The notes under the pieces are model-generated. The model ran no database searches and was not told the origin of the DNA. It saw only the letters and a list, made by a program, of their open reading frames with translations. Shown piece after piece: positions 2,673 through 57,361 of a stretch of 64,000 bases of DNA. The translations under genes were made by a program, and so were the position numbers. The stretch is taken from the IMG/VR virus record IMGVR_UViG_3300032073_005220, positions 1 to 64,000 of that record; one strand, written 5' to 3'. The stretch comes from a virus. Each line of letters starts with the position of its first letter. Position 1 is the stretch's first letter.

Positions 2673-2711
2673 TAAAGTTTGCTTGACACCTATCCGATAT
2701 TATTATATAAT
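2673..2711 (+). promoter_or_regulatory. Composite promoter: TTGACA-N17-TATAAT with nested TAAAG...CCGATA
   Basis: TAAAG 2673, TTGACA 2683, CGATA 2695, TATAAT 2706. Confidence 0.85.
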
Positions 2712-2733
2712 CGGAAGGTAGGAGATATTTATT

Positions 2734-3657
2734 ATGCGTTTTGGGTTATGTTGTATATCACTAGATTTGCAAGAATTTGAGAAACCACTCAAGTTTCAAA
2801 CTATGACATTTAAACGATTTAGCCAGCTAGATCGTGCGGACGCTTTATTAACTTTAGGCGACAGAATACTAAATAACATGGAGGTTACTAATGCTACCAT
2901 TCTGCACTGTGCAGAACACGATTATTGCTATAGGATCAGCAGTAATCTTTTTCCTCTTATTACCTATCGTGCTGCTAATATTACTCTCCGCGATCTTCCT
3001 CAATACTCTAGCATCTTACGCGAAATAGATAATATTGCATATACCATACAGCAAAACAATGTTCGTATCAGTTGTCATCCTAGCGAATTTAATGTTTTAG
3101 CCTCATCTAACACAGATGCAGTAGACAGAACAGTGACAGAATTAAATTTTTACAGTAATTTCCTTGACATGATAGGTTGTTCAGCAGACTATAATTCGCC
3201 TATGAATCTGCATATCAACAATCGGCAAGGAAGTAATGATGAGATTACACAAAGATTTATACACAATTATAATAGACTTGACAGTAATTGTCGTAACCGT
3301 ATTGTTATTGAAAACGACGATAAACCTAATTGCTGGTCTGTAAAACAACTTGTACAAGATTTTCATCCCAAAACAAATATCCCAATAACCTTCGACTATT
3401 TACATCAGGCTTGTCATCCAGACGGTTGGACAGAACAACAGGCACTAGAAGAATGTTATATGACATGGGGAGAGCATCGACCTTTATTTCATTACAGTGA
3501 AAGTTGTCGTGATCCCGACAACACGAATCCAAGAAAACACGCAGATTATGCAGAAAATACTTTCAGTACATACGGACTTGATTTTGACTTAGATATGGAA
3601 CTTAAAATGAAAGACAAAGCAATATCTAAATATTATGAAGGGATGCTTGTGGCATGA
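2734..3657 (+). CDS. uvsE: UV DNA damage endonuclease (UvsE/UvdE)
   Basis: MRFGLCC, YRISSNLFP, RISCHPSEFNVLAS, IENDD, FDYLH, HYSE, HADY and ELKMKD motifs. Confidence 0.93.
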   Translation: MRFGLCCISLDLQEFEKPLKFQTMTFKRFSQLDRADALLTLGDRILNNMEVTNATILHCAEHDYCYRISSNLFPLITYRAANITLRDLPQYSSILREIDNIAYTIQQNNVRISCHPSEFNVLASSNTDAVDRTVTELNFYSNFLDMIGCSADYNSPMNLHINNRQGSNDEITQRFIHNYNRLDSNCRNRIVIENDDKPNCWSVKQLVQDFHPKTNIPITFDYLHQACHPDGWTEQQALEECYMTWGEHRPLFHYSESCRDPDNTNPRKHADYAENTFSTYGLDFDLDMELKMKDKAISKYYEGMLVA

Positions 3658-3800
3658 GTGGGTGGTTAATTGTTTTAACTGGATTAATTTATCTGTATGT
3701 TAGTTTAGAACAAATGTATAAAGGCAATCTTGGTATGGGTATAGCTTATTTGGGATATAGCTTTTCAAATATTGGTTTATATTTATTAGCATCTAAATAG
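3654..3800 (+). CDS. Small membrane protein (48 aa)
   Basis: Not in ORF track; MSGWLIVLTGLIYLYVSLEQMYKGNLGMGIAYLGYSFSNIGLYLLASK; ATGA overlap with uvsE stop. Confidence 0.7.
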   Translation: MSGWLIVLTGLIYLYVSLEQMYKGNLGMGIAYLGYSFSNIGLYLLASK

Positions 3801-3811
3801 GAGATTATGAA

Positions 3812-4117
3812 ATGAAAGAACCCAAAAAAATACCTCTCGATCCTGAGACTCCTCAAGCAGCAAGTGTAGAAAAAATTCCTATGCCTTCAATCTATCCAGA
3901 AGCAATGTCTAATGATGTATATTCTGCAAAAAAAGATGAGGAAGTTAAAAAGTATCCTCTGAACGACAGTGTTGAAAAAGAATTGCATAACTTAATAGAA
4001 GATTCAAAACAGTATCTATCAAAAAAAGAGGCAACTCTTAATTTTATAGAAAAAGTTAAACAAAGCAAAAAAAAATATAACGAAAGATTAGAAAAAGGAA
4101 ATAAAGATTCTACTTGA
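3812..4117 (+). CDS. Hypothetical protein
   Basis: ORF with GGAG RBS upstream. Confidence 0.55.
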   Translation: MKEPKKIPLDPETPQAASVEKIPMPSIYPEAMSNDVYSAKKDEEVKKYPLNDSVEKELHNLIEDSKQYLSKKEATLNFIEKVKQSKKKYNERLEKGNKDST

Positions 4118-4141
4118 CAATGCCGATAGATATGGTATACT
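4102..4141 (+). promoter_or_regulatory. Composite promoter: TTGACA-N16-TATACT with nested TAAAG...GCCGATAG
   Basis: TAAAG 4102, TTGACA 4114, CGATA 4124, TATACT 4136. Confidence 0.8.
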
Positions 4142-4176
4142 GGTAGTATCAGTTTAATTTCACAGGAGAATTGATT

Positions 4177-4611
4177 ATGCCCAAAGGGAAAAAGACTTGC
4201 GAGAAGTGTGGACATGAATGTGGGCCAAGAGCATATATGTGTCCAGAGTGCCAACATCCTTTTATGTTTGCTGTTCAAAGCAAAGAAAAGAAAACCACTC
4301 GAATGATTAGGAAGTTCGATTGGAGAGAATTACAAAAAGGAGATAGAATTAAAGCTACCGGAGGCCCATACTCAGTAGTAGACGGCGAATATATTCCTAT
4401 GGGATGTAGAGGTAAGTTTACTGTGCTGGGTCTTGATAAGAATGGTATTATAGCTTATGGAGTAAAAGAAGGAGGCTTCTGTCATATCTGGATGGGTGAA
4501 GACGATATTTCTCCACTAACAAGGGTTCATAGAACCAAACACAGACTTGCTAAACTGCAACCAAAAGAACCTAAGAAAAACAAAAAAACTAAGACGTTGA
4601 GTATGGTGTAA
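4177..4611 (+). CDS. Zinc-ribbon protein
   Basis: CEKCG...CPECQ; basic C-terminus; AGGAG RBS. Confidence 0.65.
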   Translation: MPKGKKTCEKCGHECGPRAYMCPECQHPFMFAVQSKEKKTTRMIRKFDWRELQKGDRIKATGGPYSVVDGEYIPMGCRGKFTVLGLDKNGIIAYGVKEGGFCHIWMGEDDISPLTRVHRTKHRLAKLQPKEPKKNKKTKTLSMV

Positions 4612-4652
4612 TTATTGATACACTTATACAACATCAATATATTAAAAAGACA

Positions 4653-5021
4653 ATGAGCGAATATAGTATAACAGAGTTAGCTAATTTTGCAGAGACAGTA
4701 AGAGATTCTGCTGCTTCTAATTTGTCTGGAGGTCAATACGATACTAGGATTATAGATACTTTTATTACCATAGAACAAGTAATCAGTATAGTTAAAAAAG
4801 AAAGCCTTGGGCTTGATAATGATGGTAAGTTTATAGTTAATGGTACAATATTTGATGATGTATTTGAACAAGTCACTTCTATTATATATCAAGCAGCACT
4901 GTCTAAAGTTGCATCGCAAGATTTAATAGAGTGTGCTTGGGATGACGAAAAAAATAAAATGATTTTCTGGGTAGAAGATAATTCAAAACATAAAAAAAAT
5001 ATTGACCCCAACCCGTTTTGA
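4653..5021 (+). CDS. Hypothetical protein (paralog of 28245)
   Basis: C-terminal LIECAWDDEKNKMIFWV resembles LVESAFDEDKNDFVFWI. Confidence 0.6.
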   Translation: MSEYSITELANFAETVRDSAASNLSGGQYDTRIIDTFITIEQVISIVKKESLGLDNDGKFIVNGTIFDDVFEQVTSIIYQAALSKVASQDLIECAWDDEKNKMIFWVEDNSKHKKNIDPNPF

Positions 5022-5115
5022 TATTATTATAAATTAAATGTTGATAAGATTTTTGTAAGTGGCGACAAAATTCTTAACTTAGATTTAAAGGACAGTCACA
5101 AAAAAGGTAGATATA

Positions 5116-5337
5116 ATGACTAAGCAAGATCGTGTAATGAATTATCTTAGAAGAGGCCGTACTCTTAGCCAAGATAGTGCTTCTACTATGTTTTCTGTAG
5201 GTAATCTCAGGGCGACTATTAGCGATATTAAACCAGCTTTAAAATCAGAAGGTTTCGCTGTTGTTCGTACAACTGGAAGATATGGAGAAACCAGATATGG
5301 AGCCACAGCAATCAAGAAAAGGAAGTGCAAGAGATAA
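5116..5337 (+). CDS. Small winged-HTH DNA-binding protein
   Basis: TKQDRVMNYLRRGRTLS...FSVGNLRATISDIK; basic. Confidence 0.6.
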   Translation: MTKQDRVMNYLRRGRTLSQDSASTMFSVGNLRATISDIKPALKSEGFAVVRTTGRYGETRYGATAIKKRKCKR

Positions 5338-5457
5338 TAGAAACTAATTTTATAGCGGCCCAGTAAAGGCCAAAGGGTATATCTTATATATAAAATAGAC
5401 TTAGATAGTTAGGCTTGCTATCCCGCTATTGTTTTTATAATATTTGAAAGCGTAATT

Positions 5458-5673
5458 ATGATCCAATTACAATTATTCGACTATGACAATAAAGACATTC
5501 CACATAAACCAAAACATTGTGAATGTTGTAATAAAATTCCAGATCAGTGGATCGCCCATTATTCCCACAAGAATAAGTTCAAAGGTTGGATTTGCAATAA
5601 CTGCAAAAAAGCATGTGATTTTGTAAATAATTCTTATGACGATGCTGTAAAATTATTCAATTACCTGTATTAA
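5458..5673 (+). CDS. Small Cys-rich protein resembling an endonuclease VII-like zinc domain
   Basis: CECC...HYSHKNKFKGWICNNC. Confidence 0.4.
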   Translation: MIQLQLFDYDNKDIPHKPKHCECCNKIPDQWIAHYSHKNKFKGWICNNCKKACDFVNNSYDDAVKLFNYLY

Positions 5674-5684
5674 AATAAAAAATA

Positions 5685-5858
5685 ATGGACAAAATACATC
5701 CAGCTACTTATATACTGTGGCTTTTGCTCATGGCAAGTATAGCGACAAACTTTGTTCAAAGTTCTCAAATAATTAGACTTGAAAAAGAAATAGCGCCTGT
5801 TATAATTAGACAGAATATAGAATTTTTCGATCAAGCACCGGATGAACGTGTAATATAA
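5685..5858 (+). CDS. Small membrane or secreted protein (57 aa)
   Basis: Not in ORF track; MDKIHPATYILWLLLMASIATNF..., ends just before tmRNA. Confidence 0.5.
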   Translation: MDKIHPATYILWLLLMASIATNFVQSSQIIRLEKEIAPVIIRQNIEFFDQAPDERVI

Positions 5859-5861
5859 AAA

Positions 5862-6202
5862 GGGGGCGTACTGGTATCGACAGATAAATAGAAGTATAGA
5901 TCGCATCGACTGGTTGATCTAAAGGCCAGTGTAAAAATAGATCACATTTTAATTGCCGATACTTCTGTATTAGCACTCGCCGCTTAGGTGAGAGGGGTTA
6001 CATAAACCTTTTTACCCAATTATGTTGACTCCGATAATCGGATAGGGATGTTCCACCTAAAGTAAATGGATACAATAAGTGTAATCACTTTGACGCAGGA
6101 AAGACTGATAGTTTTGTCTGTAGTATTAATAACAACAGACTAACGATGTAGAAGTTTATGTGGAATTTATACTGGACAGGGGTTCGACTCCCCTCGCCTC
6201 CA
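5862..6202 (+). ncRNA. ssrA: tmRNA, tag (A)ADTSVLALAA
   Basis: 5' GGGGGCG pairs with 3' CGCCTCC-A including G3:U wobble; T-arm AGGGG-TTCGACT-CCCCT; tag reading frame 5955-5987 ending LAA-stop; CCA not encoded. Confidence 0.95.
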
Positions 6203-6227
6203 CTTTGTACCTTTAAATTATTGAATT

Positions 6228-8099
6228 ATGTGCGGAATACTTGCAACAAATTTTGGTAGTCTCTATCACAATATAGAGTGTTTAAGAGAACTAGAATATC
6301 GAGGCTATGATAGTACCGGATTTGTTTATGTTACAAAAATGGGGAAGGTAGGCATATATAAATCTGCTGGTAATATTAATAAACTTTTACTAACTTGCAG
6401 AGAAGATGATGTAGAAGTTGCAGCATTTATGGGACACACTAGATGGGCAACGCACGGCAAAGCTACTGATAACAATGCTCATCCTCATTTTGATATATCT
6501 GGCAGATATGCTATAGTTCAAAATGGTATAGTAGAAAACCTTAGAGATTTAAAAGAGAGATATGATCTGCAAGATAAACTAAAAAGTGATACCGACACTG
6601 AAATTATAATCAATATTGTTGCAGACAAATGTAAAGAACTCTGTTTACTGGACGCAATAGAATCGACATTTAAAGAAATCAATGGAGCAAATGCTTGCAT
6701 CATTCTAGACACACAAGAACCATCAGAATTTTATATGATTGAAAAAGGTGCTTCACTAAATATTCATGTTAATGAGATAGATGAGGGAAATCCTACTGGA
6801 ATAATTGTTTCTAGTAACTATATTAAAAATAAAAATATATGTCTAAATGGTTACGGTTTGGGCATAGGCTCTGACGACAAGATTCTTAAAATACGCAATG
6901 ACATTAATAGACATCATAAAGTATCGAGGACATTAAAAAACAATGACATATACGAAGCACCAGATAAAGGTTTCTTCGGATCGTATATGGACAAAGAAAT
7001 ACACGAACAACATACGACATTCAATAGGTTGTTAAGGGGTAGAATTAAAAACAACAAAGTATTTCTAGGAGGATTAGAAACAGAATTTAAAAATAGAGAC
7101 TGGAATAATATAAATCTAATTACTATGTTGGCTTGTGGAAGTAGTTTAAATGCTTCGAGAATAGGACAATTATATGTAGAACAATTTAGTAGAACCAGAG
7201 TATATGTAGAACAAGCAGCAGAATTTAGATATAGAAATCCTGTTTTAGAAAAAGAGTATGATTATGATACTCACAGTTCAATAGACAATGGATTAAAAGA
7301 ATTGTTCTTATTTACATCTCAATCCGGTGAAACAGCCGACACATTACAGGCATTAAAATATGTATCTGAAAATGGTTATGGCTGTAATACAATAGCGGTA
7401 TGTAATGTTGTAGGATCAGCAATAGCAGATAAATCATGGTGCGGTATTTATACTAGGGCAGGACTAGAAGTAGGAGTAGCGAGTACAAAAACATATACAA
7501 ATCAAGTTGGTGCTATGTATTTGTTAGGTTTATTTATTGCACAAAATAAAGGGGCTAGAATTGACGAACATATTCAAGAATTAGAATCTATACCAGATAA
7601 GATACAGAAGATATTAGAAGACACACAACTCTTAGACCAAATTTGGAAAGCGTGTGAATGGATAACAGATAAAGAAAGCTGTTTATTCTTAGGTAGGGGC
7701 TACAACTATCCTACAGCACTTGAAGGCGCATTAAAAATGAAAGAGTTGTCGTATATTCATGCAGAAGGCTACTCTGCTGCTGAAATGAAACACGGGCCTA
7801 TTGCGTTAATTAGTAACAAAGTACCCACTATTGCATTTGCTAACCATGATGAACAATTTGAAAAAATAGAAAGTAATATTAGAGAAATAACAGCGAGAGA
7901 TGGTAAGGTATTATTAATAACAGATAAAAGAATGGATATTGACGACATAGAACAAATAGTAATACCAGAATGTAGTCGAGAGGCTAGTCCTATACTATTA
8001 AATATTGTATCTCAACTACTATCATTAACAACTGCTAAGTTATTAGGTAGAGACGTAGACCGTCCAAGGAACTTAGCAAAAAGCGTTACTGTAGAATAA
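6228..8099 (+). CDS. glmS: Glutamine--fructose-6-phosphate aminotransferase
   Basis: MCGI, LEYRGYDS, GHTRWATHG, SQSGETADT, KHGPIALI, PRNLAKSVTVE. Confidence 0.97.
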   Translation: MCGILATNFGSLYHNIECLRELEYRGYDSTGFVYVTKMGKVGIYKSAGNINKLLLTCREDDVEVAAFMGHTRWATHGKATDNNAHPHFDISGRYAIVQNGIVENLRDLKERYDLQDKLKSDTDTEIIINIVADKCKELCLLDAIESTFKEINGANACIILDTQEPSEFYMIEKGASLNIHVNEIDEGNPTGIIVSSNYIKNKNICLNGYGLGIGSDDKILKIRNDINRHHKVSRTLKNNDIYEAPDKGFFGSYMDKEIHEQHTTFNRLLRGRIKNNKVFLGGLETEFKNRDWNNINLITMLACGSSLNASRIGQLYVEQFSRTRVYVEQAAEFRYRNPVLEKEYDYDTHSSIDNGLKELFLFTSQSGETADTLQALKYVSENGYGCNTIAVCNVVGSAIADKSWCGIYTRAGLEVGVASTKTYTNQVGAMYLLGLFIAQNKGARIDEHIQELESIPDKIQKILEDTQLLDQIWKACEWITDKESCLFLGRGYNYPTALEGALKMKELSYIHAEGYSAAEMKHGPIALISNKVPTIAFANHDEQFEKIESNIREITARDGKVLLITDKRMDIDDIEQIVIPECSREASPILLNIVSQLLSLTTAKLLGRDVDRPRNLAKSVTVE

Positions 8100-8380: not shown

Positions 8381-8428
8381 GGTGTATATTATAGTGTTGA
8401 GAAAATTATAACACTATTGGAGTTACCT

Positions 8429-8710
8429 ATGTTTAAAAAATCTAAAAGGCATTTAGCCGACAACAACATGGGATATTTAGAGCATTTTGTTTTTGCTTCT
8501 GGACATGGATTAAATTGTATTAAATCTGGATTTCTTTTAATAATACATGCTTTGATACCGGGCATTTTATCAGAAACAGGTTCTAGAATTACAAATGAAT
8601 TAAATAAAGTTTTTACAGACCAGAATGAATACCTGTCTCTTAAAACTAGAGTGGAAGCATTTAAAAAGATAGTATACCATTATCAATCAAAGTTAGCAGA
8701 CAAGAACTAA
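8429..8710 (+). CDS. DUF6356-like small protein
   Basis: HL...MGYLEHF.FA...IIHALIP...TGS pattern. Confidence 0.6.
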   Translation: MFKKSKRHLADNNMGYLEHFVFASGHGLNCIKSGFLLIIHALIPGILSETGSRITNELNKVFTDQNEYLSLKTRVEAFKKIVYHYQSKLADKN

Positions 8711-8743
8711 AGACTTGACTTTGCATTGACGATACTGTATACT
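8708..8743 (+). promoter_or_regulatory. Composite promoter: TTGACT-N17-TATACT with nested TAAAG...GACGATAC
   Basis: TAAAG 8708, TTGACT 8715, CGATA 8730, TATACT 8738. Confidence 0.8.
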
Positions 8744-8780
8744 ATACGGACAGGACTACACAAGGACTCAGGATATTATA

Positions 8781-12379: not shown

Positions 12380-12383
12380 TATT

Positions 12384-15298: not shown

Positions 15299-15307
15299 CG
15301 AACAGCC

Positions 15308-15350
15308 TAAAGAAACACCTATTGACAAACCGATAATAGTAGTGTACAAT
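15308..15350 (+). promoter_or_regulatory. Composite promoter: TTGACA-N17-TACAAT with nested TAAAG...ACCGATAA
   Basis: TAAAG 15308, TTGACA 15322, CGATA 15331, TACAAT 15345. Confidence 0.8.
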
Positions 15351-15386
15351 CGTTAGTATCACAGGACTTAACTTTTGGAGACTATT

Positions 15387-18540: not shown

Positions 18541-18582
18541 TAAAGTTTTTATTGTTGACAAGACGATATGTTATGATATAAT
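18541..18582 (+). promoter_or_regulatory. Composite promoter: TTGACA-N16-TATAAT with nested TAAAGTTT...GACGATAT
   Basis: TAAAG 18541, TTGACA 18555, CGATA 18564, TATAAT 18577. Confidence 0.8.
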
Positions 18583-18616
18583 AAAATTGTTGTAAGCTGG
18601 ATATTTGGAGGAAAAA

Positions 18617-18889
18617 ATGAAAAAGGACAAGAAAAGAATCCATTGTTCTAATGAAAAATTTTTGGAAGCAGTATATTCAAGCAAGACCTACGCTGAAGTG
18701 TCTTCAAAGACAGGTCAAAGAATTACATCTACTATGGCTAGATATTCTAGAATCAAAAAGAAGTTATCAAAAAAGAATATAAAATTGCCGAGGATGGAAA
18801 GAATGACAAGAATCACCAACCTAAATGATGTAGACGATATAGTGAATATTATAAATAAATTAAAGGCCCAACATTTTGGAACTAATTAA
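18617..18889 (+). CDS. Small basic putative DNA-binding protein
   Basis: GGAGG RBS; HTH-like SKTYAEVSSKTG...MARY. Confidence 0.5.
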   Translation: MKKDKKRIHCSNEKFLEAVYSSKTYAEVSSKTGQRITSTMARYSRIKKKLSKKNIKLPRMERMTRITNLNDVDDIVNIINKLKAQHFGTN

Positions 18890-18894: not shown

Positions 18895-18968
18895 GGGGCT
18901 GTATTCCAATAGGCAGAGAAAACGGACTTAAAATCCGTACAGTGTCGGTTCGAGTCCGACCAGCCCTA
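18895..18968 (+). tRNA. tRNA-Leu(TAA), short variable loop
   Basis: GGGGCTG/CAGCCCT acceptor stem; anticodon arm ACGGA-CTTAAAA-TCCGT; T-arm GTCGG-TTCGAGT-CCGAC. Confidence 0.93.
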
Positions 18969-24081: not shown

Positions 24082-24123
24082 TAAAGATTAATGCTTGACA
24101 ACATCTATAGACGATGATATACT
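24082..24123 (+). promoter_or_regulatory. rIIA promoter: TTGACA-N17-TATACT with TAAAG and degenerate CTATA
   Basis: TAAAG 24082, TTGACA 24095, CTATA 24105, TATACT 24118. Confidence 0.8.
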
Positions 24124-24162
24124 TAGGCTATCACAGGACAATAACTTTTTGGAGACTATTAG

Positions 24163-26808
24163 ATGAAACTTGCAGATCGTACAGTTGAAATTCACTCAAA
24201 CGGTGTTGATGCTAGTAATCAGTTCAGCATTGCACAAACCAGCAAAATGTTTAAGATTTTGTCAGATTCATTATATTCTGACAAGGTAATGGCAGTTATT
24301 CGTGAACTGTCTACAAATGCCAACGATGCCCACGTTGCATCAGGCAATAGGAACCCTTTCAAGGTCAGCTTACCTACACAAGCCAACCCTAACTTTACGG
24401 TGAGAGATTATGGTACTGGATTATCTCAAGAAGATATGGAAGAACTCTATACAACTTATGGGGCTAGTAACAAGAATGACAGTAACGATTTTACTGGTTG
24501 TCTTGGTCTTGGTTCTAAGAGTCCATTTGCTTACACTAAAAGTTTTAGCACAACTTCTTTCTTCAATGGCAAAGCGTACAATTACATAGCGGCTATGGAC
24601 GAAGGCGGCGTTCCTAGTTTGAGTTTGTTCGGAGTCGCTGAAACTGATGAGCCTAATGGTCTTGAAATTAGTTTTGCAGTAAAGCAAAGTGACTTCCAAG
24701 AGTTTACTAATAAGTCTAAGAGAATATTCCATTACTTTAAGACTAAGCCAATGATGGAGGGTGGTACTTGTAATCTTCTTCAGAACCATGCGTATTCTCA
24801 TACTAATACTATTATAGAAGGGACTAACTGGCGTGTTGGTAGAATCTCTGATAATGACGACAAGTATCCTAGCACATATAACAGTCCCGGTGCTGGTATT
24901 GTGGCTATCATGGGTAATATTGCATACCCAGTAGATTCCGATAAGATTATCGGCAAAGAAGAACAACAGCAAAAGAGTGACGCTATCCAAAGATGGAACA
25001 GAGCGTTTAAGAAAGCAGACGTAGATAACTGGACTAACTTAGTCAAAGAGATTCTAAACTCTGGCATGTATCTTGAAATTACCTGCGACATTGGTGAACT
25101 AGAGATGGATGTTAGTAGAGAAGGTCTACAGTATACTAAGTCTGTTATTAAGACTCTTAGAGAAAAGACTCAAGACATTTATCTGCAACTCAAGAGCAAT
25201 ATGTCAACTAAGGTTGAAGAGTGTACTAATCTTGTAGATGCTTACCAGACATATTATAAGCTGGCTGATATTGCTGGTGGATATACCGCTGGTGCAGAGT
25301 GGGTCGATCCAGAAGGCAAGCAACACGATCTGTCTGCTGGTGAAGATTTGGATTATAAATTGGGTAAGCACAAACAGTTGTATGTTATTAATTATCGTAC
25401 TGCTAGTCATCGTTCTAAGAGAATGTTATATCTAACAGATAAAATCCATCACGAAAGTCTACAGGGTAGATCGTCTAATTATTGGGATAATAAGCGTAAG
25501 AGTAATCCTCTAGCCTTCTTTGTCTGCGATACTAGAAGTCCTGAGACTGCCAAGAAGATTGCTATTAGATATTGTAATCAGAATGATTGTATGGCATATC
25601 TTATGGTTGACACTCAAAATCCAGCAGAAGATTCTGGTGAGGGTTTCGCTAAACTTATCAAAGATATTGGTGGAGAAGAGAACGTCAAGAATATCTCTGA
25701 GTACCGTAGTCTGCTGCAATCTAGCACCAAGGGAAGAACTGGCACTGGTGCTGGTATGATTAGTAAGGACGAAATCTTTCTGCTAAAAAGTTCTAAAGAT
25801 TATCATACAGATGAGTGTTCTGATCTTAGCGGCAATAATCTTAATGACTCTAATATACTTAGTGAATTAAGTGATAGTCTGGTAGAAGGACTAGAAGATG
25901 CTGAACGAGTAATCTATGTTCCTATTACTAGATATAAGTCTGTTAGTCCTTATCCCGATCTTCATAAGATTTATAGTCTATCAAGTAAAGACAATGTTTT
26001 AGGTAGTGTGCTATTCAAGAGATATAATATCTATGCTATCAAACAAAGTTCAGTAGCCAAACTACAAAAGCAAGGTATCAATCTGGTTTGCTTTAACAAA
26101 TGGTTTAAGAGCAAGGCTGCAAAAATGTCTAAGAAATTAAGAGAAGAAGTAGGTAAGTATGATGCAGTCATAAACTACTGTGACAAAGAGTATTCTACTT
26201 CAGATTTTAAGAAGCAAAGAAGTTGGAGTAGTCAGCCTGAGCGTTCAGATAGAGTTGTAATGGCTAATCTTTTAAATATCTATGGTCTTGACTACAAAGA
26301 CTATATTAAAAATGAGACAGTCACTAAGGCTATGGATGAATGGCTACTTATGTACTACTTTGCTCAGGTTGCAAATAGTGAATACTTTAATCTTAGAGTA
26401 TTTAGTAGACAAAGACTTGAACAGCATGTAAATAACATAGCAAGTGAATACAATATCGTAGAAGACGCAAAGGATATTCACACCAAGATTCTTAAACTAG
26501 ACAATATGCTTTGTGAATTTAAGAAACTATATGGTTACGAAGAATTGCCATCTGGTAAGAAATCACGTAGTCAGGCAATCATCAAGACCCTGCCTAAGAT
26601 GGATGCTCTTAGAAAAATTCTTAAAGGTGCTATTGACAGTTCACCGATACTAAAGTATATTGTTAGTGGTAACGATGAGTTGGATATTGAGAAGATCAAA
26701 AATGCTGCTCCTACAGATATTCACAACAATGGTTACTATGGTCGAGACAAATGGTTTGACAATGTTGAACTCAGCGAACTGAGAACAGCAGTAGGAAATT
26801 TGGTTTAA
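24163..26808 (+). CDS. rIIA: RIIA-like protein (GHKL/Hsp90-like ATPase N-domain)
   Basis: LSDSLYSDK..VIRELSTNA.DAH, RDYGTGLS, GLGSKSPFAYT, SREGL; adjacent to rIIB. Confidence 0.9.
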   Translation: MKLADRTVEIHSNGVDASNQFSIAQTSKMFKILSDSLYSDKVMAVIRELSTNANDAHVASGNRNPFKVSLPTQANPNFTVRDYGTGLSQEDMEELYTTYGASNKNDSNDFTGCLGLGSKSPFAYTKSFSTTSFFNGKAYNYIAAMDEGGVPSLSLFGVAETDEPNGLEISFAVKQSDFQEFTNKSKRIFHYFKTKPMMEGGTCNLLQNHAYSHTNTIIEGTNWRVGRISDNDDKYPSTYNSPGAGIVAIMGNIAYPVDSDKIIGKEEQQQKSDAIQRWNRAFKKADVDNWTNLVKEILNSGMYLEITCDIGELEMDVSREGLQYTKSVIKTLREKTQDIYLQLKSNMSTKVEECTNLVDAYQTYYKLADIAGGYTAGAEWVDPEGKQHDLSAGEDLDYKLGKHKQLYVINYRTASHRSKRMLYLTDKIHHESLQGRSSNYWDNKRKSNPLAFFVCDTRSPETAKKIAIRYCNQNDCMAYLMVDTQNPAEDSGEGFAKLIKDIGGEENVKNISEYRSLLQSSTKGRTGTGAGMISKDEIFLLKSSKDYHTDECSDLSGNNLNDSNILSELSDSLVEGLEDAERVIYVPITRYKSVSPYPDLHKIYSLSSKDNVLGSVLFKRYNIYAIKQSSVAKLQKQGINLVCFNKWFKSKAAKMSKKLREEVGKYDAVINYCDKEYSTSDFKKQRSWSSQPERSDRVVMANLLNIYGLDYKDYIKNETVTKAMDEWLLMYYFAQVANSEYFNLRVFSRQRLEQHVNNIASEYNIVEDAKDIHTKILKLDNMLCEFKKLYGYEELPSGKKSRSQAIIKTLPKMDALRKILKGAIDSSPILKYIVSGNDELDIEKIKNAAPTDIHNNGYYGRDKWFDNVELSELRTAVGNLV
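26622..26661 (+). promoter_or_regulatory. rIIB promoter inside the 3' end of rIIA: TTGACA-N17-TATATT with nested TAAAG...ACCGATAC
   Basis: TAAAG 26622, TTGACA 26633, CGATA 26645, TATATT 26656. Confidence 0.7.
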
Positions 26809-48730: not shown

Positions 48731-48746
48731 TAAGAATAGAAAGACT

Positions 48747-51574: not shown

Positions 51575-52493
51575 AGTATTTATAGTAACATATAAAAGAT
51601 CTGACGTTTTAAATAGAACTCTTAATACCTTATTTCATCAAACAGATTTTTTAACAATACCAAACACCCAAGTAAATATTATCAACAATCACTCTGATTT
51701 TTATTTAGATCCTGCATTCTCTAGTCAAGTAAACGTTATACATAATAATACCAGGCCTGATTGGGACACAGGGAATTTAGCTAGAAATTGGAATGAGTCT
51801 TTGCTTCATGGTTTTAAAGACTTAAAAAATCCTGATGCTAATATTGTTACAACAATGCAGAACGATATTGTGTTAAGTAAGCATTGGGCTAGCAATCTGA
51901 TGAAAATGCATGAAAAATATACATTTATAACTGGACATTTTGGAGATAACATTGTAAGCTACCAACCGGAAGCGGTAAAGAAAATAGGAATGTGGGATGA
52001 AAGATATTTAACTCCTGTTAATAAAGAAGCAGATTATTTTATTAGGGCATTAATTTATAATAAAAATAAATCATTAATTAACGATAAAGCTCATGGTAGA
52101 TTACTAAATGCAAAAGACGCCTTAGAATTGGACAGTAGTGCATATTTAGGAAACGAACCCGATTGGAGAAATGAATTTAAAGACAAAGAAAACACTAGAG
52201 AAGGATGGTATCATACTTCTCAAATATTTTACTGGAAATGGAAAGACACTTGGAAAACACAACCAAGTTACTACGGTTGGTTAACAAGATGGTCACAAGA
52301 TTTTATAAATAATCCCCCATCTCCACCAAAAGTACCAAACTTTGTGCAATATGCCTATTTTGAAAAAGATATTGAACTTAAAGATAAAAACTATGTTGGT
52401 TGGCGTAAAGGAGATTGCTGGCTAGATGCTAATAAATGTTGTGACATAGATATTCATCCCTTTAAAGCGGGGAAAAGATTTAGAGATGATTAA
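51561..52493 (+). CDS. GT2-like glycosyltransferase
   Basis: IVTYKR, LARNWN, QND, IGMWDERY...EADY. Confidence 0.6.
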   Translation: MKNLKVFIVTYKRSDVLNRTLNTLFHQTDFLTIPNTQVNIINNHSDFYLDPAFSSQVNVIHNNTRPDWDTGNLARNWNESLLHGFKDLKNPDANIVTTMQNDIVLSKHWASNLMKMHEKYTFITGHFGDNIVSYQPEAVKKIGMWDERYLTPVNKEADYFIRALIYNKNKSLINDKAHGRLLNAKDALELDSSAYLGNEPDWRNEFKDKENTREGWYHTSQIFYWKWKDTWKTQPSYYGWLTRWSQDFINNPPSPPKVPNFVQYAYFEKDIELKDKNYVGWRKGDCWLDANKCCDIDIHPFKAGKRFRDD

Positions 52494-53853
52494 GCTAATA
52501 ATTTTTGATTTAGACGGAGTATTAGTAGATGCAAGAGAGTTGCATTACGAAGCTTTAAATGCTGCATTAGAATATATTGATAAGAAATATGTTATAAATA
52601 GACAGGAGCATTTGTCTACTTACGACGGTCTTTCTACCACTAAAAAACTGCAGATGCTTACAAAAGAAAAGCATTTACCTCAAAATTTACATCACGAAAT
52701 ATGGAAGCTCAAACAAGAAAAAACATTAGATATTATCCGTGATTTTCAACCTGACCTAAGGATTATTGCCCTATTAAAGAATTTGAAACAACAAGGTATA
52801 ACGGTCGCATGCGCTACGAATTCTATTAGGGACACGGCAAAATTACAGTTAATAAAGAAAGGTTTTTTTGAGCATATTGATTTTATGTATTCTAATCAAG
52901 ATGTGAATAAGCCTAAGCCTAGTTCAGAAATATATCTCAGATGTATGCTAAAAGCAGATGTTGACCCACAAGAAACAGTAATTGTAGAAGACTCTCATCA
53001 CGGCAGAAAAGCAGCTATTAATAGCGGAGGACATTTGTGTGCTGTCAAAAATAGTACTGATGTCACACAAGATAAAATACAAAATTTTATAAATAAAATC
53101 AACAAACAAGCCACCATAAAACCCAAGTGGCAGGGAGGCAAGATGAATGTACTTATTCCTATGGCCGGTGCTGGATCAAGATTTGAACAAGCAGGTTATA
53201 CTTTCCCCAAACCTCTAATTGAGGTTAAAGGCAAACCAATGATACAGTTGGTAGTTGATAGTCTTAATATTGATGCTAGGCACATATTCGTGGTACAAGA
53301 ATCTCATTATGAAAAATATAACTTAAAACACTTGTTAAATCTAATATCTCCAAACTGTGAAGTTGTGTGCGTGAATGGAGTAACGGAAGGAGCAGCTTGC
53401 ACAACCTTGCTTGCTAAAAAGTTTATAGACAATAATGAACCTCTTGTGTTCGCTAATTCAGATCAGTTTTTAGATTGGGATAGTAATGAATTTATGTATT
53501 CTATGGAAGCCGACGAAATTGATGGAGGCATGCTGACCTTTACAGCCACTCATCCCAAATGGAGTTTTGCTAAATTAAATGACGACGGTTTTGTTACTGA
53601 AGTAGCAGAGAAAAAACCGATCAGTGATATTGCAACAGTCGGAGTTTATTATTGGAAACGTGGAGCTGATTATGTAAAATATGCCGAACAAATGATCAGA
53701 GAAAATATTAGAGTGAATAACGAGTTTTATGTATGTCCTGTGTTTAATGAGGCTATTAAAGATGGTAAGAAAATCAAAACTTTCCATTTTGATGGTATGT
53801 GGGGCATAGGTACTCCTGAAGATTTAGATATATTCAATAAAGAATATAAGTGA
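52486..53853 (+). CDS. HAD phosphatase fused to a sugar-phosphate nucleotidyltransferase
   Basis: FDLDGVL, KPKP, VEDS; then IPMAGAGSRF...PKPLI, GTPEDL. Confidence 0.88.
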   Translation: MIKLIIFDLDGVLVDARELHYEALNAALEYIDKKYVINRQEHLSTYDGLSTTKKLQMLTKEKHLPQNLHHEIWKLKQEKTLDIIRDFQPDLRIIALLKNLKQQGITVACATNSIRDTAKLQLIKKGFFEHIDFMYSNQDVNKPKPSSEIYLRCMLKADVDPQETVIVEDSHHGRKAAINSGGHLCAVKNSTDVTQDKIQNFINKINKQATIKPKWQGGKMNVLIPMAGAGSRFEQAGYTFPKPLIEVKGKPMIQLVVDSLNIDARHIFVVQESHYEKYNLKHLLNLISPNCEVVCVNGVTEGAACTTLLAKKFIDNNEPLVFANSDQFLDWDSNEFMYSMEADEIDGGMLTFTATHPKWSFAKLNDDGFVTEVAEKKPISDIATVGVYYWKRGADYVKYAEQMIRENIRVNNEFYVCPVFNEAIKDGKKIKTFHFDGMWGIGTPEDLDIFNKEYK

Positions 53854-54650
53854 AAATCATTAAAAAAAAAATAGCTATATTACTAACTGGATTTGTAAGA
53901 AATTGGAAAGATACAATAAATAATCTTATTGTAAATTTTGTAAGTAAAAATGACGAGAGATTTGAATTCGATTTATATGGAGTAACTTATAATATAACAG
54001 ATGACTATACTCAGGACACTAGCTATAAAAGACATGTAGATTTACAAGAAATTAATTCCTTAACAGAAGAATATGCATTTAAAGACTTAGAAGTATTAAA
54101 TTATAGAAAAACATTAAATAAAATACTTTGGGACAATCAACAAATAATATCTCTAATTGAGGATTATATAGATGTGGAATACAAGATAGAAACAATTTTA
54201 ATGCAATGCTTTTGCATACAGCTTGCTTATAATAAAATACAACACAAGAAATATGATTTTGTCATGAGAAGTAGGTTTGATGTTAATCATATACAAAGTA
54301 CAATTATTCAAGAAGAAGGAATCGCAAATAATGAAATTGGATGTCTGTCAAGACCTAGCAGCCAAAATTTTGTAGACCATGTTGTTTTTGGTACTCAACA
54401 AAATTTGAGAATATTTTGTAATACTTATTCTAATCTACAAACAGAAAACTTTATTACTAATTATAAAATTAAATTTGTAGAAGACGCTTTTTTAAATACC
54501 TTATTGATGAATAAAATTAAAATTAAGATTTTGCCATGGATTTGTAGTGTTCAAAGGCGCACTCCATGCATCATCTGTGAAAGAGAAGGAACTAAAGACG
54601 AATTGTTTTTATTTGACATACGTAAGTTCAACTTAGATGAAACGAGTTAA
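53850..54650 (+). CDS. Hypothetical glycan-associated protein
   Basis: IAILLTGFVR, YDFVMRSRFD, DHVVFG. Confidence 0.55.
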   Translation: MKIIKKKIAILLTGFVRNWKDTINNLIVNFVSKNDERFEFDLYGVTYNITDDYTQDTSYKRHVDLQEINSLTEEYAFKDLEVLNYRKTLNKILWDNQQIISLIEDYIDVEYKIETILMQCFCIQLAYNKIQHKKYDFVMRSRFDVNHIQSTIIQEEGIANNEIGCLSRPSSQNFVDHVVFGTQQNLRIFCNTYSNLQTENFITNYKIKFVEDAFLNTLLMNKIKIKILPWICSVQRRTPCIICEREGTKDELFLFDIRKFNLDETS

Positions 54651-54654
54651 TCCA

Positions 54655-55350
54655 ATGAAATTAAAAGATTTAGAAATTATAGACGCAAATCAACATTTAT
54701 TTGATAGCTTTAATGACTTTATACTGAGTAGTGATACGAAGGTCTTTGGCAAACTACTTGCTAGATGCTTATTGTTGAATCAGGTTAAAGACATTCCTGG
54801 AGATATTGTAGAGTGTGGAGTATTTAAAGGAACGGGTCTTATGACATTTCTAAAAGCTAAAAGATTCTTATGTCCTAACGGACATAAAAAAGTTATCGGC
54901 TTTGATTTCTTTAATTCAGATGGGCTACTAAAAAGTCTCGACGGAATAGACAAAAAAGCTATGTCTACTTTATTTAAAGGTAGAAATTATGAGCACAAAA
55001 ATAAACACGAAGAAATATTATATCAATATATTTTAAATTGTGGTTTTGCAGAACATGAGTTTGAGCTGGTGTCTGGTGATATAACTAAGACATCGCATGA
55101 ATACATTAAAGATAAACCTGGATTCAGAATATCTTTATTGTATATTGATCTAGATTTAGATGTGCCAAGTTATGAAACACTAAATGCTCTCTGGGACAGA
55201 GTATCTAGAGGAGGTGTTGTCGTCTTCGATGAATATGCTTTTCATAAATGGTCTGAAGCTGACGGGGTCGACAGATTCTTTAAGGATAAAAACATTACAA
55301 TTAAAACCCTAGACTATATATGTCCAACAGCATATGTAATAAAATCATGA
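54655..55350 (+). CDS. TylF/MycF-family O-methyltransferase
   Basis: GDIVECGVFKG, GFD, YIDLD, GGVVVFDEY. Confidence 0.85.
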   Translation: MKLKDLEIIDANQHLFDSFNDFILSSDTKVFGKLLARCLLLNQVKDIPGDIVECGVFKGTGLMTFLKAKRFLCPNGHKKVIGFDFFNSDGLLKSLDGIDKKAMSTLFKGRNYEHKNKHEEILYQYILNCGFAEHEFELVSGDITKTSHEYIKDKPGFRISLLYIDLDLDVPSYETLNALWDRVSRGGVVVFDEYAFHKWSEADGVDRFFKDKNITIKTLDYICPTAYVIKS

Positions 55351-55817
55351 ATAAAATATTAATATCTCATAGGGGAAATATATTTGGCTCAAAACCCGAA
55401 CAAGAAAATAAGCCCGAATATATTCTTAAAGCGATATCAAACGGTTTTGATGTAGAAATAGATATATGGAATTCTAAGGATAAATTATTTCTAGGACATG
55501 ATAATCCTGAGACTAATATAAATAAAGATTTTTTATTACAAAACAGACAATATCTTTGGTGTCACGCTAAAAATCTTACAGCTTTAGAAAAATTACTGGA
55601 CATGGGTATGACTTGCTTTTGGCATCAAGAAGATTATTATACCTTAACTAGCAATAACTATATATGGACCTATCCAGATCAATCAGTTGGAAGTAACTCT
55701 ATATGGGTAATGCCAGAAATGGCTGGTATTAATGAAACACAAACAGATTTATATCTATCAAATTGCATCGGAATATGTTCTGATTTTATAGGAGAGTATA
55801 TATGGACAAAACAATAG
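55347..55817 (+). CDS. PLC/GDPD-like phosphodiesterase-fold protein
   Basis: ISHRGN, ENKP, DVEID, LGHD, HAKN, GICSD. Confidence 0.75.
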   Translation: MNKILISHRGNIFGSKPEQENKPEYILKAISNGFDVEIDIWNSKDKLFLGHDNPETNINKDFLLQNRQYLWCHAKNLTALEKLLDMGMTCFWHQEDYYTLTSNNYIWTYPDQSVGSNSIWVMPEMAGINETQTDLYLSNCIGICSDFIGEYIWTKQ

Positions 55818-56506
55818 TAGTAATGGGTAATGGTCCGTCATTGAAAGATTTAGATTGGGATCTACTCAAAGGCGTCGACACCTTTGGCTTAAATTCAGCT
55901 TATAGGGCTTATGAAAAAATGAACTGGTACCCTACATATCATGGTTGTTTTGACTATATAGTTACCGATTGTCACAGGCAAAACTTCACTCACCTAATCA
56001 ATACGGGTAGAATTAAAAATCATTTTTATATTCGTAATATATCTAATGCTTCTAACTTTACTCACATTAATCTACAACCTTGGAAAACCACACACAAGAT
56101 CAATAAATCTCCTGATGATTTCTCTTCTTTTCGGGATAATGGTAATAGTGGCACAAATGCGTGTTCTGTTAGTATGTGTTTAGGTTATAAAAATATAATA
56201 CTTGTCGGGGTGGATTGTAATTATGTTGAGCATGTAGACGGGTCTACTGGTGACGGACAGGGAGGTTTAAAGATGTTCAAAACTCCTGAAACAAATCCCA
56301 ATTATTGGTTTGATGATTACCAACAGGAAGGAGACAGATATAATGTCCCTAGAGGCGAGGTATTTCACAAACCTGCTTGGAACGACTTCTCTCAACTTGC
56401 TAAAGATAACGGCATTAATGTAGTCAATTCCAGCCCGATATCAACCTTAGAGTGTTTCAATAAGGTCTCGCTAGAACAGGCTGTTGCACAATATGTAAAA
56501 ACTTAA
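55802..56506 (+). CDS. DUF115/Maf/GT42-like ulosonate transferase candidate
   Basis: VMGNGPSL, FGLN, GYKNIILVGVD. Confidence 0.6.
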   Translation: MDKTIVVMGNGPSLKDLDWDLLKGVDTFGLNSAYRAYEKMNWYPTYHGCFDYIVTDCHRQNFTHLINTGRIKNHFYIRNISNASNFTHINLQPWKTTHKINKSPDDFSSFRDNGNSGTNACSVSMCLGYKNIILVGVDCNYVEHVDGSTGDGQGGLKMFKTPETNPNYWFDDYQQEGDRYNVPRGEVFHKPAWNDFSQLAKDNGINVVNSSPISTLECFNKVSLEQAVAQYVKT

Positions 56507-56584
56507 TAAAATTCTTGCATAGACATATAGAAAAAACCATCTATAATAAACTAGATATCTAAACCAGAAAAAGAGGACTTTAAA

Positions 56585-57313
56585 ATGATATTATCTTGGC
56601 AGCAAATACCTTCTGTTACTGTTTCTGAAATTATGTGTAAAGGTTTTGATGGAGTTGTTCTTGATACTGAACACGGTAGTTTTAATACGGAAACTATTAA
56701 TAATTGCATACAGGTAATTAAATTAGCAGGCAAGAAAGCTTTCGTCAGATTAACAGAAGTTTCACCCACCAATATCAGATCGTGTCTTGATTCTGGCTGT
56801 GATGGTCTTATTTTTTCAACAGTAGAGACTGTTGACCAATGCGAAGCCATTAAAAACTGTTGCTACTTCCCTCCAAAAGGCAAGAGAGGTCTTGGACTAT
56901 CAAGAGAAAATATGTGGGGAGAAAAAAATCAATTAGTAAGTAGTGGACCAATTATTGTTCCTCAGATAGAATCTAAATTAGGTATTGAAAATATAGAAAA
57001 AATTAAAAGCTATGGATTTGACTTTCATCTTATTGGTCCGTATGATTTATCTTTAAGTTTAGAAATACCTGGCGACTTTAAACACGAAAAATTTCAAGAA
57101 GCTATTAAGACTATGAGAGATAGTATTCCTAATGATAAAATGGCCATACATATCCCTAAGGATCTTGACGCTTGGAATTTATGGCAGTCCGAAATGGAAG
57201 AATGGCTGAACTATTCAGATTATGGAATGCTATGCATAGGTATGGATACTATAGCTATCTTCCAGTATAATAAAGTAAATTTATCTAAAGTCAAAAAGAA
57301 CGCTGGTCGATAG
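56585..57313 (+). CDS. HpcH/HpaI class II pyruvate aldolase
   Basis: LDTEHG, VR, PPKGKRG, QIES, IGPYDLS. Confidence 0.88.
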   Translation: MILSWQQIPSVTVSEIMCKGFDGVVLDTEHGSFNTETINNCIQVIKLAGKKAFVRLTEVSPTNIRSCLDSGCDGLIFSTVETVDQCEAIKNCCYFPPKGKRGLGLSRENMWGEKNQLVSSGPIIVPQIESKLGIENIEKIKSYGFDFHLIGPYDLSLSLEIPGDFKHEKFQEAIKTMRDSIPNDKMAIHIPKDLDAWNLWQSEMEEWLNYSDYGMLCIGMDTIAIFQYNKVNLSKVKKNAGR

Positions 57314-57361
57314 AATAATATAGAAACTTCTCTTGACTTTGCAGCATCCTTGCTGTATAAT
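57286..57361 (+). promoter_or_regulatory. Tandem promoters: TAAAG...GTCGATAG, then TTGACT-N17-TATAAT with palindromic spacer
   Basis: TAAAG 57286, CGATA 57308; TTGACT 57333, TATAAT 57356; CAGCA-tcct-TGCTG in the spacer. Confidence 0.75.

Follow-up and report, generated by a model that had tools for sequence, protein, structure and literature searches.

A family-conserved two-box signal, TAAAG...CGATA, in the early promoters of an uncultured large marine phage

Early transcription in phages is generally taken to rely on the housekeeping sigma factor of the host. Class 3 flagellar promoters are read by sigma-28 factors, namely FliA in E. coli, Salmonella and Pseudomonas, SigD in Bacillus, WhiG in Streptomyces and sigma-28 in Chlamydia. 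Promoters served by two sigma factors, overlapping or in tandem, are known from the flagellar class 2/3 operons of enterobacteria and from Chlamydia, with its tandem sigma-66/sigma-28 promoters. In phage T4, MotA-dependent middle promoters are also present at early genes. As for extracytoplasmic-function (ECF) sigma factors, their promoters typically have a CG-initial -10 and a -35 about 16-17 nt before it.

The window studied here (the whole stretch of DNA that was analysed, 64,000 nucleotides) is the first part of a 157,014-bp contig of an uncultured large marine phage. Its early promoters contain a two-box signal, TAAAG...CGATA, that is real and conserved in the phage family. This element resembles class 3 flagellar promoters in its -35 (TAAAG with a pyrimidine before and A/T-rich bases after it) and in its -10 (CGATA-A with an extended -10 G upstream) (PMC12784957), and it is likewise asymmetric, bipartite and directed towards genes, with one nucleotide of play in the gap. 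It differs from them in that the gap is 17-18 nt and not 16, the base before CGATA is C or A and not always C, and the element lies within the sigma-70 promoters of early genes and not before motility genes. As at the known two-sigma promoters, one gene would putatively be startable by two holoenzymes, under broader expression conditions; unlike there, the two box sets are interdigitated within about 40 nt, in a virus, and the nested layout is repeated, at 6 promoters in the contig and at about 16-19 in relatives. T4 offers a further parallel, as a second, differently recognized start signal (putative in our phage) lies near a host-type promoter and expression can go on after the first mode ends. 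T4 middle promoters, however, keep the sigma-70 -10 and replace only the -35, at a fixed distance, while in our phage both boxes differ and are not tied to one register with the sigma-70 boxes.

Occurrence of the element in the contig

Eight exact TAAAG-N17/18-CGATA matches were found in the contig, all on the + strand, where 0.35 were expected from 100 dinucleotide shuffles (shuffle maximum 3). The 22-23 nt spacing singled out by an earlier note on this DNA is thus enriched over shuffled sequence. When all gaps between N5 and N40 were tallied over the whole contig, N17 accounted for five matches and N18 for three, against 0-2 for each other gap, and the - strand held no TAAAG-N17/18-CGATA. 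One-mismatch variants are about at background level (27 besides the 8 perfect ones on the + strand, with about 19 expected per strand at up to one mismatch). The same note had described the signal as genome-wide, which is not the case: every copy falls within the initial 58 kb, with none in the structural half of the contig (64-157 kb).

The window also contains 23 matches to the sigma-70 promoter pattern, where 13 are expected, and those that are intergenic and on the + strand are near consensus, with a TTGACA-like -35, a spacer of 17 +/- 1, a TATAAT-like -10 and a gene downstream. Six elements (2673, 4102, 8708, 15308, 18541 and 26622) are interleaved with TTGAC(A/T)-N17/18-TAnnnT promoters. 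The sites are as follows.

2673-2711, + strand: nested promoter before the UvdE gene (2734); TAAAG 2673-2677, CGATA 2695-2699; sigma-70 -35 2683-2688, -10 2706-2711 (+ strand)
4102-4141, + strand: nested promoter before ORF 4171-4611; TAAAG 4102-4106, CGATA 4124-4128; sigma-70 -35 4114-4119, -10 4136-4141 (+ strand)
8708-8743, + strand: nested promoter before the ATP-dependent DNA ligase gene (8781); TAAAG 8708-8712, CGATA 8730-8734; sigma-70 -35 8715-8720, -10 8738-8743 (+ strand)
15308-15350, + strand: nested promoter before the 8-oxoguanine glycosylase-like gene (15375); TAAAG 15308-15312, CGATA 15331-15335; sigma-70 -35 15322-15327, -10 15345-15350 (+ strand)
18541-18582, + strand: nested promoter before ORF 18605-18889 and tRNA-Leu (18895-18968); TAAAG 18541-18545, CGATA 18564-18568; sigma-70 -35 18555-18560, -10 18577-18582 (+ strand)
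26622-26661, + strand: nested promoter in the 3' end of rIIA, before rIIB (26833); TAAAG 26622-26626, CGATA 26645-26649; sigma-70 -35 26633-26638, -10 26656-26661 (+ strand)
24082-24123, + strand: rIIA promoter of sigma-70 type, with TAAAG upstream and CTATA instead of CGATA
57286-57312, + strand: stand-alone TAAAG-N17-CGATA in the 3' end of an HpcH-like aldolase gene
57333-57361, + strand: sigma-70 promoter 47 nt downstream of the 57286 pair and separate from it
2400-2426, + strand: perfect TAAAG-N17-CGATA within ORF 1955-2644, with no sigma-70 partner

At the six interleaved sites, in the order given above, the TAAAG-to-CGATA offset is 22, 22, 22, 23, 23 and 23, and the TAAAG-to-TTGAC offset is 10, 12, 7, 14, 14 and 11, which confirms the reported pattern of a fixed 22-23 nt offset with a -35 wandering over 7-14 nt. 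All eight sites listed in the note are present at the coordinates given there, and the genes were correctly assigned (UvdE, ATP-dependent ligase, 8-oxoguanine glycosylase, rIIA/rIIB, tRNA-Leu and the IMPDH/GMP-reductase-domain gene). The list lacked the perfect match at 2400, inside an ORF, and included two sites, 24082 and 57286, that are not conserved. Another upstream motif, GGTGTAWW, is over-represented in this genome: GGTGTA precedes 12 gene starts, where 1.4 are expected, and the GGTGTA-type motif is also found upstream of structural genes.

Conservation, coupling and orientation in the phage family

In relatives at 55-96% rIIA protein identity the box pair is kept, with compensating shifts in orthologous promoters, the total gap staying constant while the -35 box moves. 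The family has 246 unique sigma-70-like promoter strings, 68 of which carry both boxes, in 73 box pairs. The two offsets add up to 22 or 23 in 67 of these 73 pairs, although individually they range over 7-14 and 9-15, and at least 10 different register combinations give the same total gap. Over all of IMG/VR, gaps of N16, N17, N18, N19 and N20 were counted 14, 28, 50, 3 and 5 times, respectively; the 14 N16 matches mostly lack a correctly spaced -10 hexamer and look fortuitous. In relatives retrieved by homology, a co-directional TTGAC (-35) lies inside 73 unique elements and an inverted one inside none. In the records of three relatives, elements on the gene strand and on the other strand number 20 and 4, 23 and 3, and 9 and 0. 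Every conserved copy overlays the core of a sigma-70 promoter and none is conserved alone or in tandem; in some relatives it is the sigma-70 -10 box, and not the -35, that lies between the two boxes. The family contigs span 30-46% GC and many habitats, and the gap shift is constant throughout. The boxes are as conserved as the sigma-70 hexamers, even at 55% protein identity, whereas the bases around and between them vary freely. These data support the earlier claim that TAAAG...CGATA is an independent bipartite element whose spacing is fixed; they also show that it is always co-directional with the overlapped sigma-70 promoter and that it is conserved in the family.

Individual sites were compared in the same way. 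In the orthologs of the UvdE promoter (L103, L105, L106, L107 and L123) both boxes are kept with a total gap of 17/18, and the -35 has moved by 1-2 nt. Among distinct orthologous sequences, site 4102 retains CGATA in 11 of 11 and TAAAG in 10 of 11, and site 15308 retains CGATA in 8 of 8 and TAAAG in 6 of 8. The ligase promoter has its -35 at 7 or 10 nt from the TAAAG start in relatives, with a constant TAAAG-CGATA gap of 17/18. Site 26622 is a less secure member, since it lies inside coding sequence and in L019, L026 and L030 (54-68% rIIA protein identity) CGATG replaces CGATA, the sigma-70 boxes being kept.

Three candidates were rejected as conserved members on comparison with relatives. In 12 orthologs of the rIIA promoter (24082) both boxes are mostly absent and the spacer differs, and a CGATG-n extended -10 is conserved beside the -10 hexamer. 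At 57286, only those relatives that are closest in this part, with 94-97% DNA identity, have retained the pair; L127, whose aligned region is 84% identical in DNA, has lost it. This pair is probably a chance match or a recent copy. The sigma-70 promoter downstream of it (57333-57361) serves an operon holding the IMPDH/GMP-reductase-domain gene and a sigma gene. For 2400, an ortholog was sought in the relatives and none was recovered, and this is probably a chance match.

Likeness to sigma-28 promoters and candidate readers

We built a consensus from 113 family sites less than 80% identical, TAAAG being invariant by selection, and obtained Y-TAAAG-W-T-T ... G-(C/A)-CGATA-A. The base before TAAAG is C in 53 sites and T in 43 (96 of 113 together), and A/T-rich bases follow it. 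Upstream of CGATA, a G stands two bases away in 91 of 113 sites, and C (57) or A (37) one base away in 94 of 113; an A directly follows CGATA in 68 of 113. The published sigma-28 boxes are TCTAAAG and GCCGATAA (PMC12784957). Our element matches both the sigma-28 -35 (TAAAG, extended as TCTAAAG and then followed by T-rich bases) and the -10, GCCGATAA with its extended -10 GC. The spacing does not match: sigma-28 promoters have 16 nt from TAAAG to CGATA, i.e. TAAA-N15-GCCGATAA, with 17 as a minor class, whereas the phage family has N18 at 71 sites, N17 at 42 and N16 at almost none. The gap is N16 in the P. aeruginosa fliC promoter, in 4 of 4 Massilia promoters and in 4 of 4 sigma-28-like promoters upstream of flagellin in Planctomycetota. 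In 201 Gammaproteobacteria, N16, N17 and N18 occur about 50, 25 and 3 times, where the background is roughly 7 for each gap, so that N18, the commonest gap in the phage family, is at background level there, and in 121 Alphaproteobacteria the sigma-28 pattern is at or under control level. The phage boxes are 1-2 bases wider apart than in natural sigma-28 promoters, and the sigma-28 consensus invoked in the earlier note stands for the boxes, extended -10 G included (PMC12784957), and fails for the gap, N17/18 against a natural N16 with N17 in the minority.

The planctomycete host proposed for this phage has no support, and the Planctomycetota promoters are N16. GlmS and Gmd share only 39-52% identity with any bacterium, no relative was found in GTDB genomes, and a tmRNA BLAST search gave a match limited to the universal 3' end. 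The scenario of an infection that starts in either the swarmer or the sessile cells of a dimorphic host is pure inference.

The phage has a sigma factor of its own, which had been put forward as another possible reader.

62502-63092, + strand: sigma-70-family sigma factor P0001, 196 aa (TIGR02937, 59 bits; Sigma70_r4)

This protein scores 27.6 bits against FliA_WhiG (TIGR02479), whose curated cut-off is 189.6, and its region 4.2 reads SREAVRQ, close to the aligned TRERIRQ of RpoD, where four FliAs from four phyla have SESRVSQ. By score and by region 4.2 contact residues it falls outside the FliA/WhiG family. Moreover, its ortholog in G324 is a pseudogene with frameshifts and stops. The proposal therefore finds no backing. 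A second sigma-like gene of the family, a 212-aa ORF in L374 (Sigma70_r2, 24.1 bits), may also encode the reader; 11 of 14 records contain it, with 33-66% identity, and it sits behind a GGTGTA-type motif. No region 4 was detectable in the L374-type protein. Its gene is absent from our contig but may lie in an unassembled part, since the two contig ends correspond to positions in relatives that are separated by about 52-60 kb.

Our preferred reading, held tentatively, is that the element is a second promoter, nested in the first, for an alternative sigma factor that would most likely be of FliA type and come from the host. Each strong early promoter would then consist of two interleaved same-strand promoters: a near-consensus sigma-70 promoter (-35, 17-bp spacer, -10), and one with the -35 Y-TAAAG and the -10 G-(C/A)-CGATA-A, including the extended -10 G, at a fixed gap of 17-18 nt and in almost any register to the sigma-70 boxes. 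RNA polymerase carrying a sigma of sigma-28-type specificity, for which a FliA-like group-3 sigma from the host is the likeliest candidate, would start upstream of the sigma-70 start, by about 7-13 nt, where the -35 lies between the boxes, and about 10 nt downstream of it where, as in some relatives, the -10 does. The genes for DNA repair, ligase, rIIB and tRNA could be fired by either holoenzyme. The spacing- and strand-specific enrichment, the coupled offsets and the strict orientation support a second promoter, and the match to the published boxes (PMC12784957) supports a sigma-28-type reader. In addition, GGTGTAWW offers itself as the motif of the phage's own sigma(s), leaving TAAAG...CGATA for a host factor. 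Against a host FliA speak the N16 of natural sigma-28 promoters compared with N17/18 in the phage, the Alphaproteobacteria at or below control, and the fact that the element is never conserved stand-alone. FliA is absent from many abundant low-GC marine bacteria, which also counts against it.

It is possible, though we consider it unlikely, that a phage-encoded sigma reads the element, the early genes passing from host sigma-70 to the phage sigma later in infection and the sigma-28-like boxes at shifted spacing being the family's own promoter code. The +1/+2 spacing stays constant over contigs from many habitats and with 30-46% GC, which is easier to reconcile with a phage-encoded reader than with many different host sigmas, the L374-type gene is conserved family-wide and may have escaped assembly here, and a CG-initial -10 is typical of ECF promoters. 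However, the 62502 protein has a sigma-70-type region 4.2, not the pattern shared by the four FliAs, and is broken in G324, which still keeps about 19 elements. The L374-type protein, without a detectable region 4, would more plausibly read the GGTGTA-type motif, which precedes its own gene and also structural genes, and the structural half has no element. Such a promoter code, with sigma-28 look-alike boxes set 1-2 bp wider for a phage sigma-like reader, would build a hand-over from host sigma-70 to phage sigma into every early promoter and avoid cross-talk with the host flagellar regulon.

We find it improbable that the boxes are instead the site of a non-sigma regulator, such as a phage protein that shuts off early promoters or a host factor, lying across the sigma-70 promoter and blocking or modulating it. 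Every conserved copy does overlap a sigma-70 promoter core, none standing alone or in tandem, and an occlusion-type repressor could accept a free register. But the site has neither dyad nor direct-repeat symmetry, the boxes being unrelated in either orientation, as is not expected for the operator of a dimeric repressor; a gap that can vary by one nucleotide is a typical trait of sigma promoters and an unusual one in operators; and it would have to be by coincidence that three parts match a known sigma consensus. The invariant orientation (73:0), which an occluding operator does not need, is together with the free register what an independent promoter predicts. Very improbable, finally, is an element without function of its own, its boxes inherited from one ancestral promoter cassette copied around the genome. 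The promoters do share other features, e.g. a common leader right after the -10, and many of the family sites are orthologs or paralogs, so that the counts are not independent, but a copied cassette accounts poorly for at least 10 register combinations with one total gap, for the compensating shifts in orthologs, or for boxes as conserved as the sigma-70 hexamers among free surrounding bases down to 55% protein identity.

Implications for early transcription in the phage family

The element is short and sharply defined, and genomes of this widespread aquatic phage family carry it at about 20 promoters each, which makes it easy to test in vitro; the spacing shift of 1-2 bp offers a clean way to tell a host reader from a phage reader. 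It could also mark early regions in metagenomic phage contigs. If a second holoenzyme does fire the same promoters, the start of infection would be wired either to the state of the host cell (motility, in the case of a FliA reader) or to a sigma factor made by the phage. To our knowledge, either wiring would be a compact regulatory design not described for phages.

A fixed-gap box pair in early promoters of the contig

The window covers the first 64 kb of one IMG/VR virus record (157,014 bp, 33% GC). Its protein products include ThyX, UvdE, an 8-oxoguanine glycosylase-like protein, an ATP-dependent ligase, GlmS, rIIA, rIIB and an IMPDH/GMP-reductase-domain protein, and it also carries many glycan-pathway genes, a tRNA-Leu and a tmRNA. 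The features discussed here are the following.

2673, 4102, 8708, 15308, 18541 and 26622, + strand: nested TAAAG/CGATA elements
4142-4170, 8744-8780, 15351-15374 and 24124-24162: common leader that opens with TATCACAGGA or a near variant
5862-6205: phage-borne one-piece tmRNA (Rfam 106.9 bits; tag peptide ADTSVLALAA)
62502-63092: gene of P0001, a sigma-70-family sigma factor

The earlier note had listed eight sites with a TAAAG and a CGATA box at sigma-70 promoters, and 8/8 were found in the sequence. A search for TAAAG-N17/18-CGATA, where N gives the nucleotides between the boxes, yielded eight exact matches, all on the + strand, against 0.35 expected. The histogram of gaps from N5 to N40 over the whole contig gave five pairs at N17 and three at N18, with 0-2 at each other gap; the - strand of the whole contig has no TAAAG/CGATA pair at N17/18, and one-mismatch variants occur at background level only. 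Six of the eight exact matches interleave with near-consensus sigma-70 promoters. In all six, as previously described, the TAAAG-to-CGATA offset is 22 or 23, and the sigma-70 -35 box lies anywhere from 7 to 14 nt past the start of TAAAG. By our own arithmetic, six of six in two adjacent gap values has P ~4e-5, assuming ~11 sterically possible values. The element is not distributed genome-wide as had been claimed, all copies being confined to 2.4-57.3 kb. Elsewhere in the contig (~102553-102580, locus L002), a sigma-70 promoter carries CGATA in its spacer and a second TTGAC in the place of TAAAG, 23 nt upstream of CGATA.

The TATCACAGGA leader begins ~5-7 nt past the sigma-70 -10 box, so that its position follows the sigma-70 start and not the nested element.

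Conservation and anatomy across the phage family

Close cultured phages were not found in the phage collection (0 megablast matches; best rIIA match 33%), and relatives were collected from IMG/VR with three query proteins, giving 41 rIIA loci (54-97% identity), 22 ligase loci and 7 loci for ORF 56585. Both boxes are kept in orthologous promoters, even in the clade at 55-57%. Among relatives, the intervening bases of the UvdE promoter change from 5+7 to 6+6 with the total gap unchanged, and, counted from the start of TAAAG, the -35 box of the ligase promoter begins at 7 or 10 nt depending on the lineage, with a gap of 17/18 throughout. Both boxes occur in 68 of the family's 246 unique sigma-70-like promoter strings; these contain 73 box pairs, and 67 of the pairs have offsets that add up to 22 or 23, through ten register combinations. 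A blind IMG/VR scan for TAAAG, TTGACA and CGATA with free gaps returned at least 118 stretches. In loci retrieved from the matches listed, the total gap was distributed N16:17:18:19:20 = 14:28:50:3:5, where chance would give a nearly flat distribution from 16 to 20; the N16 matches mostly have no -10 hexamer and look like chance occurrences. Element-bearing contigs range from 30 to 46% GC.

Three sites do not belong to the conserved set. At the rIIA promoter site, 24082, the spacers of 12 orthologs differ; there (24095-24123) and in the orthologs, CGATG-n abutting the -10 hexamer, a TG-type extended -10, is conserved in place of the nested element. The 57286 pair, which stands alone, is no longer present at 84% DNA identity, and the pair at 2400 has no ortholog among the fetched relatives.

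A consensus was drawn from 113 sites, each <80% identical to the others. C or T precedes TAAAG in 96/113, and A/T-rich bases follow it. CGATA is preceded directly by C or A (94/113), has G two bases upstream (91/113, against a 20% G background) and is followed directly by A in 68/113. The idea that the -10-like box is a weak -10 for sigma-70 or sigma-S was rejected, since such promoters are marked neither by an invariant C and G nor by a G two positions before the box.

Restricting the count to loci obtained by homology leaves 73 unique elements with a co-directional -35 box inside and no inverted one; an antisense match occurs once, at the 57286 site. Whole records of relatives hold ~16-19 real copies, all on the early-gene strand, while the reversed-pattern control gives 2-4. 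The records of two relatives, G323 and G324, also show a second register, in which TAAAG is followed by a -10 hexamer, often TG-extended, then 2-3 nt and CGATA; a nested start would here fall downstream of the sigma-70 start.

The element is real, directional and functional-looking, most plausibly a second promoter lying within each early promoter. It can take almost any position across the sigma-70 core; such freedom of register combined with a constant direction is to be expected of an independent promoter. Were the element the site of a non-sigma regulator, an occluding operator would need no fixed direction, yet the element always points the same way, and we consider this reading rather improbable. 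That the element has no separate function seems to us very improbable indeed.

Candidate readers of the element and the host

In a Pseudomonas structure paper, the sigma-28 promoter carries TCTAAAG at -36 to -30 and GCCGATAA at -15 to -8, GC being the extended -10, and 16 nt separate TAAAG and CGATA (PMC12784957). The sigma-28 consensus proposed for the element is matched in all three sub-elements but not in spacing: natural sigma-28 promoters mostly use N16, whereas the gap of the phage family is 1-2 nt longer, and those natural promoters make practically no use of N18, the family's commonest class. In Massilia, 4/4 matches to the sigma-28 pattern were at N16, three of them within ~180 nt on one contig. 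A usable spacing histogram came only from a more specific pattern over 201 Gammaproteobacteria, with 92 matches distributed N14:15:16:17:18:19 = 6:7:50:25:3:1 (our count from coordinates) over a background of ~7 per gap, a rough sum of control columns; one genome flagged as unpublished, G146, contributes three N16 matches, and N16 is 47 without it. The same pattern was at or below control in 121 Alphaproteobacteria, and per-genome counts with loose sigma-28 patterns were at control level and uninformative. Four N16-N18 matches in G003, a FliA-bearing Thiotrichales MAG, were set aside (genome ~47-51% GC; no flagellar gene downstream). A full-text search found, in the texts searched, no description of sigma-28-type promoters in phage early regions.

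We tentatively favour a host FliA-type sigma as the reader, at somewhat below even probability. A phage-encoded sigma-like protein is a less probable reader, and on balance unlikely: the N17/18 spacing, constant over a broad family, leaves room for it, but the boxes themselves are sigma-28-like. The earlier note had offered P0001 in this role, which its features disfavour. A generic member of the sigma-70 family (TIGR02937 59 bits, region 4 clear), P0001 scores 27.6 bits against the FliA/WhiG model, below the cut-off of 189.6. When aligned with four FliAs (Thiotrichales, Massilia, Planctomycetaceae, Brachyspira) and one RpoD, its region 4.2 shows the DNA-contact residues in the RpoD pattern, a different pattern being common to 4/4 FliAs. 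In G324 (194,787 bp), the P0001 homolog (L358, G324:103472-106672) is a pseudogene spread over three frames with in-frame stops, and the genes beside it match at 68-79% DNA identity; rIIA and ligase are intact there and ~19 elements are kept. The absence of P0001 from G323 was discarded as proof that the elements are independent of it, because the G323 contig ends there and the whole 48-95 kb equivalent is lacking, so that only the G324 pseudogene counts as an argument.

Nothing was found in support of the planctomycete host proposed previously. Of 30 Planctomycetota flagellin loci, 26 have no recognisable sigma-28 box, and the recognisable motifs in flagellin upstream regions are at N16, the canonical gap, in 4/4 cases. 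The flagellin loci L381, L400 and L406, whose sigma-28-like motifs have this gap, are at 33-38% GC, so low-GC members of the phylum exist. A Bacteroidota host is disfavoured by the strong Shine-Dalgarno sites and consensus sigma-70 boxes of the phage, which we take to be foreign to that phylum. As host markers, GlmS (best bacterial matches 39%, Bacteroidota and Ignavibacteria) and Gmd (up to 52%, spread over many phyla) were rejected as too distant. No relative of rIIA turned up in 185,579 species genomes, and BLAST of the tmRNA against 300 Gammaproteobacteria matched only the 30-nt tRNA-like end.

A second sigma-like gene and the GGTGTA motif

The contig ends (window 1-776 and L005:10000-13014) are separated by ~52 kb when mapped on G324 and by ~60 kb on G323. 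A stretch is therefore probably missing, and the 157-kb record is probably incomplete despite a CheckV estimate of 100%. In relatives, this stretch holds ~12 more nested promoters and a second sigma-like gene, of which the contig as assembled has no copy. The product (212 aa), conserved across the family and found in 11/14 records, reaches the Pfam threshold for Sigma70_r2, has a Cys-rich middle part and shows no detectable region 4.

L374:1459-2097 (G323): second sigma-like gene, also in G324, G317 (two copies), G314, G307, G310, G311 and G313
Window 2649, 4605, 8381, 16301, 16623, 30231, 33795 and 60782: GGTGTA followed by A/T-rich bases
Contig 64538, 65274, 65951, 69732 and 85606 (+) and 129323 (-): the same motif beyond the window

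No word is more enriched upstream of genes than GGTGTAWW, and 12 gene starts have GGTGTA upstream of them (1.4 expected), mostly at 26-127 nt from the called start. Two copies, at 60782 and 65951, directly adjoin the called start, and those starts may need reassigning. GGTGTAWW precedes early, middle and structural genes in the contig, and GGTGTA is also found upstream of the operon of the second sigma-like gene in two relatives (L374, L375). The GGTGTA-type motif is a candidate for a second class of promoters and may be what a phage sigma reads, and we infer that GGTGTAWW would be a more natural target of such a sigma than the nested element.
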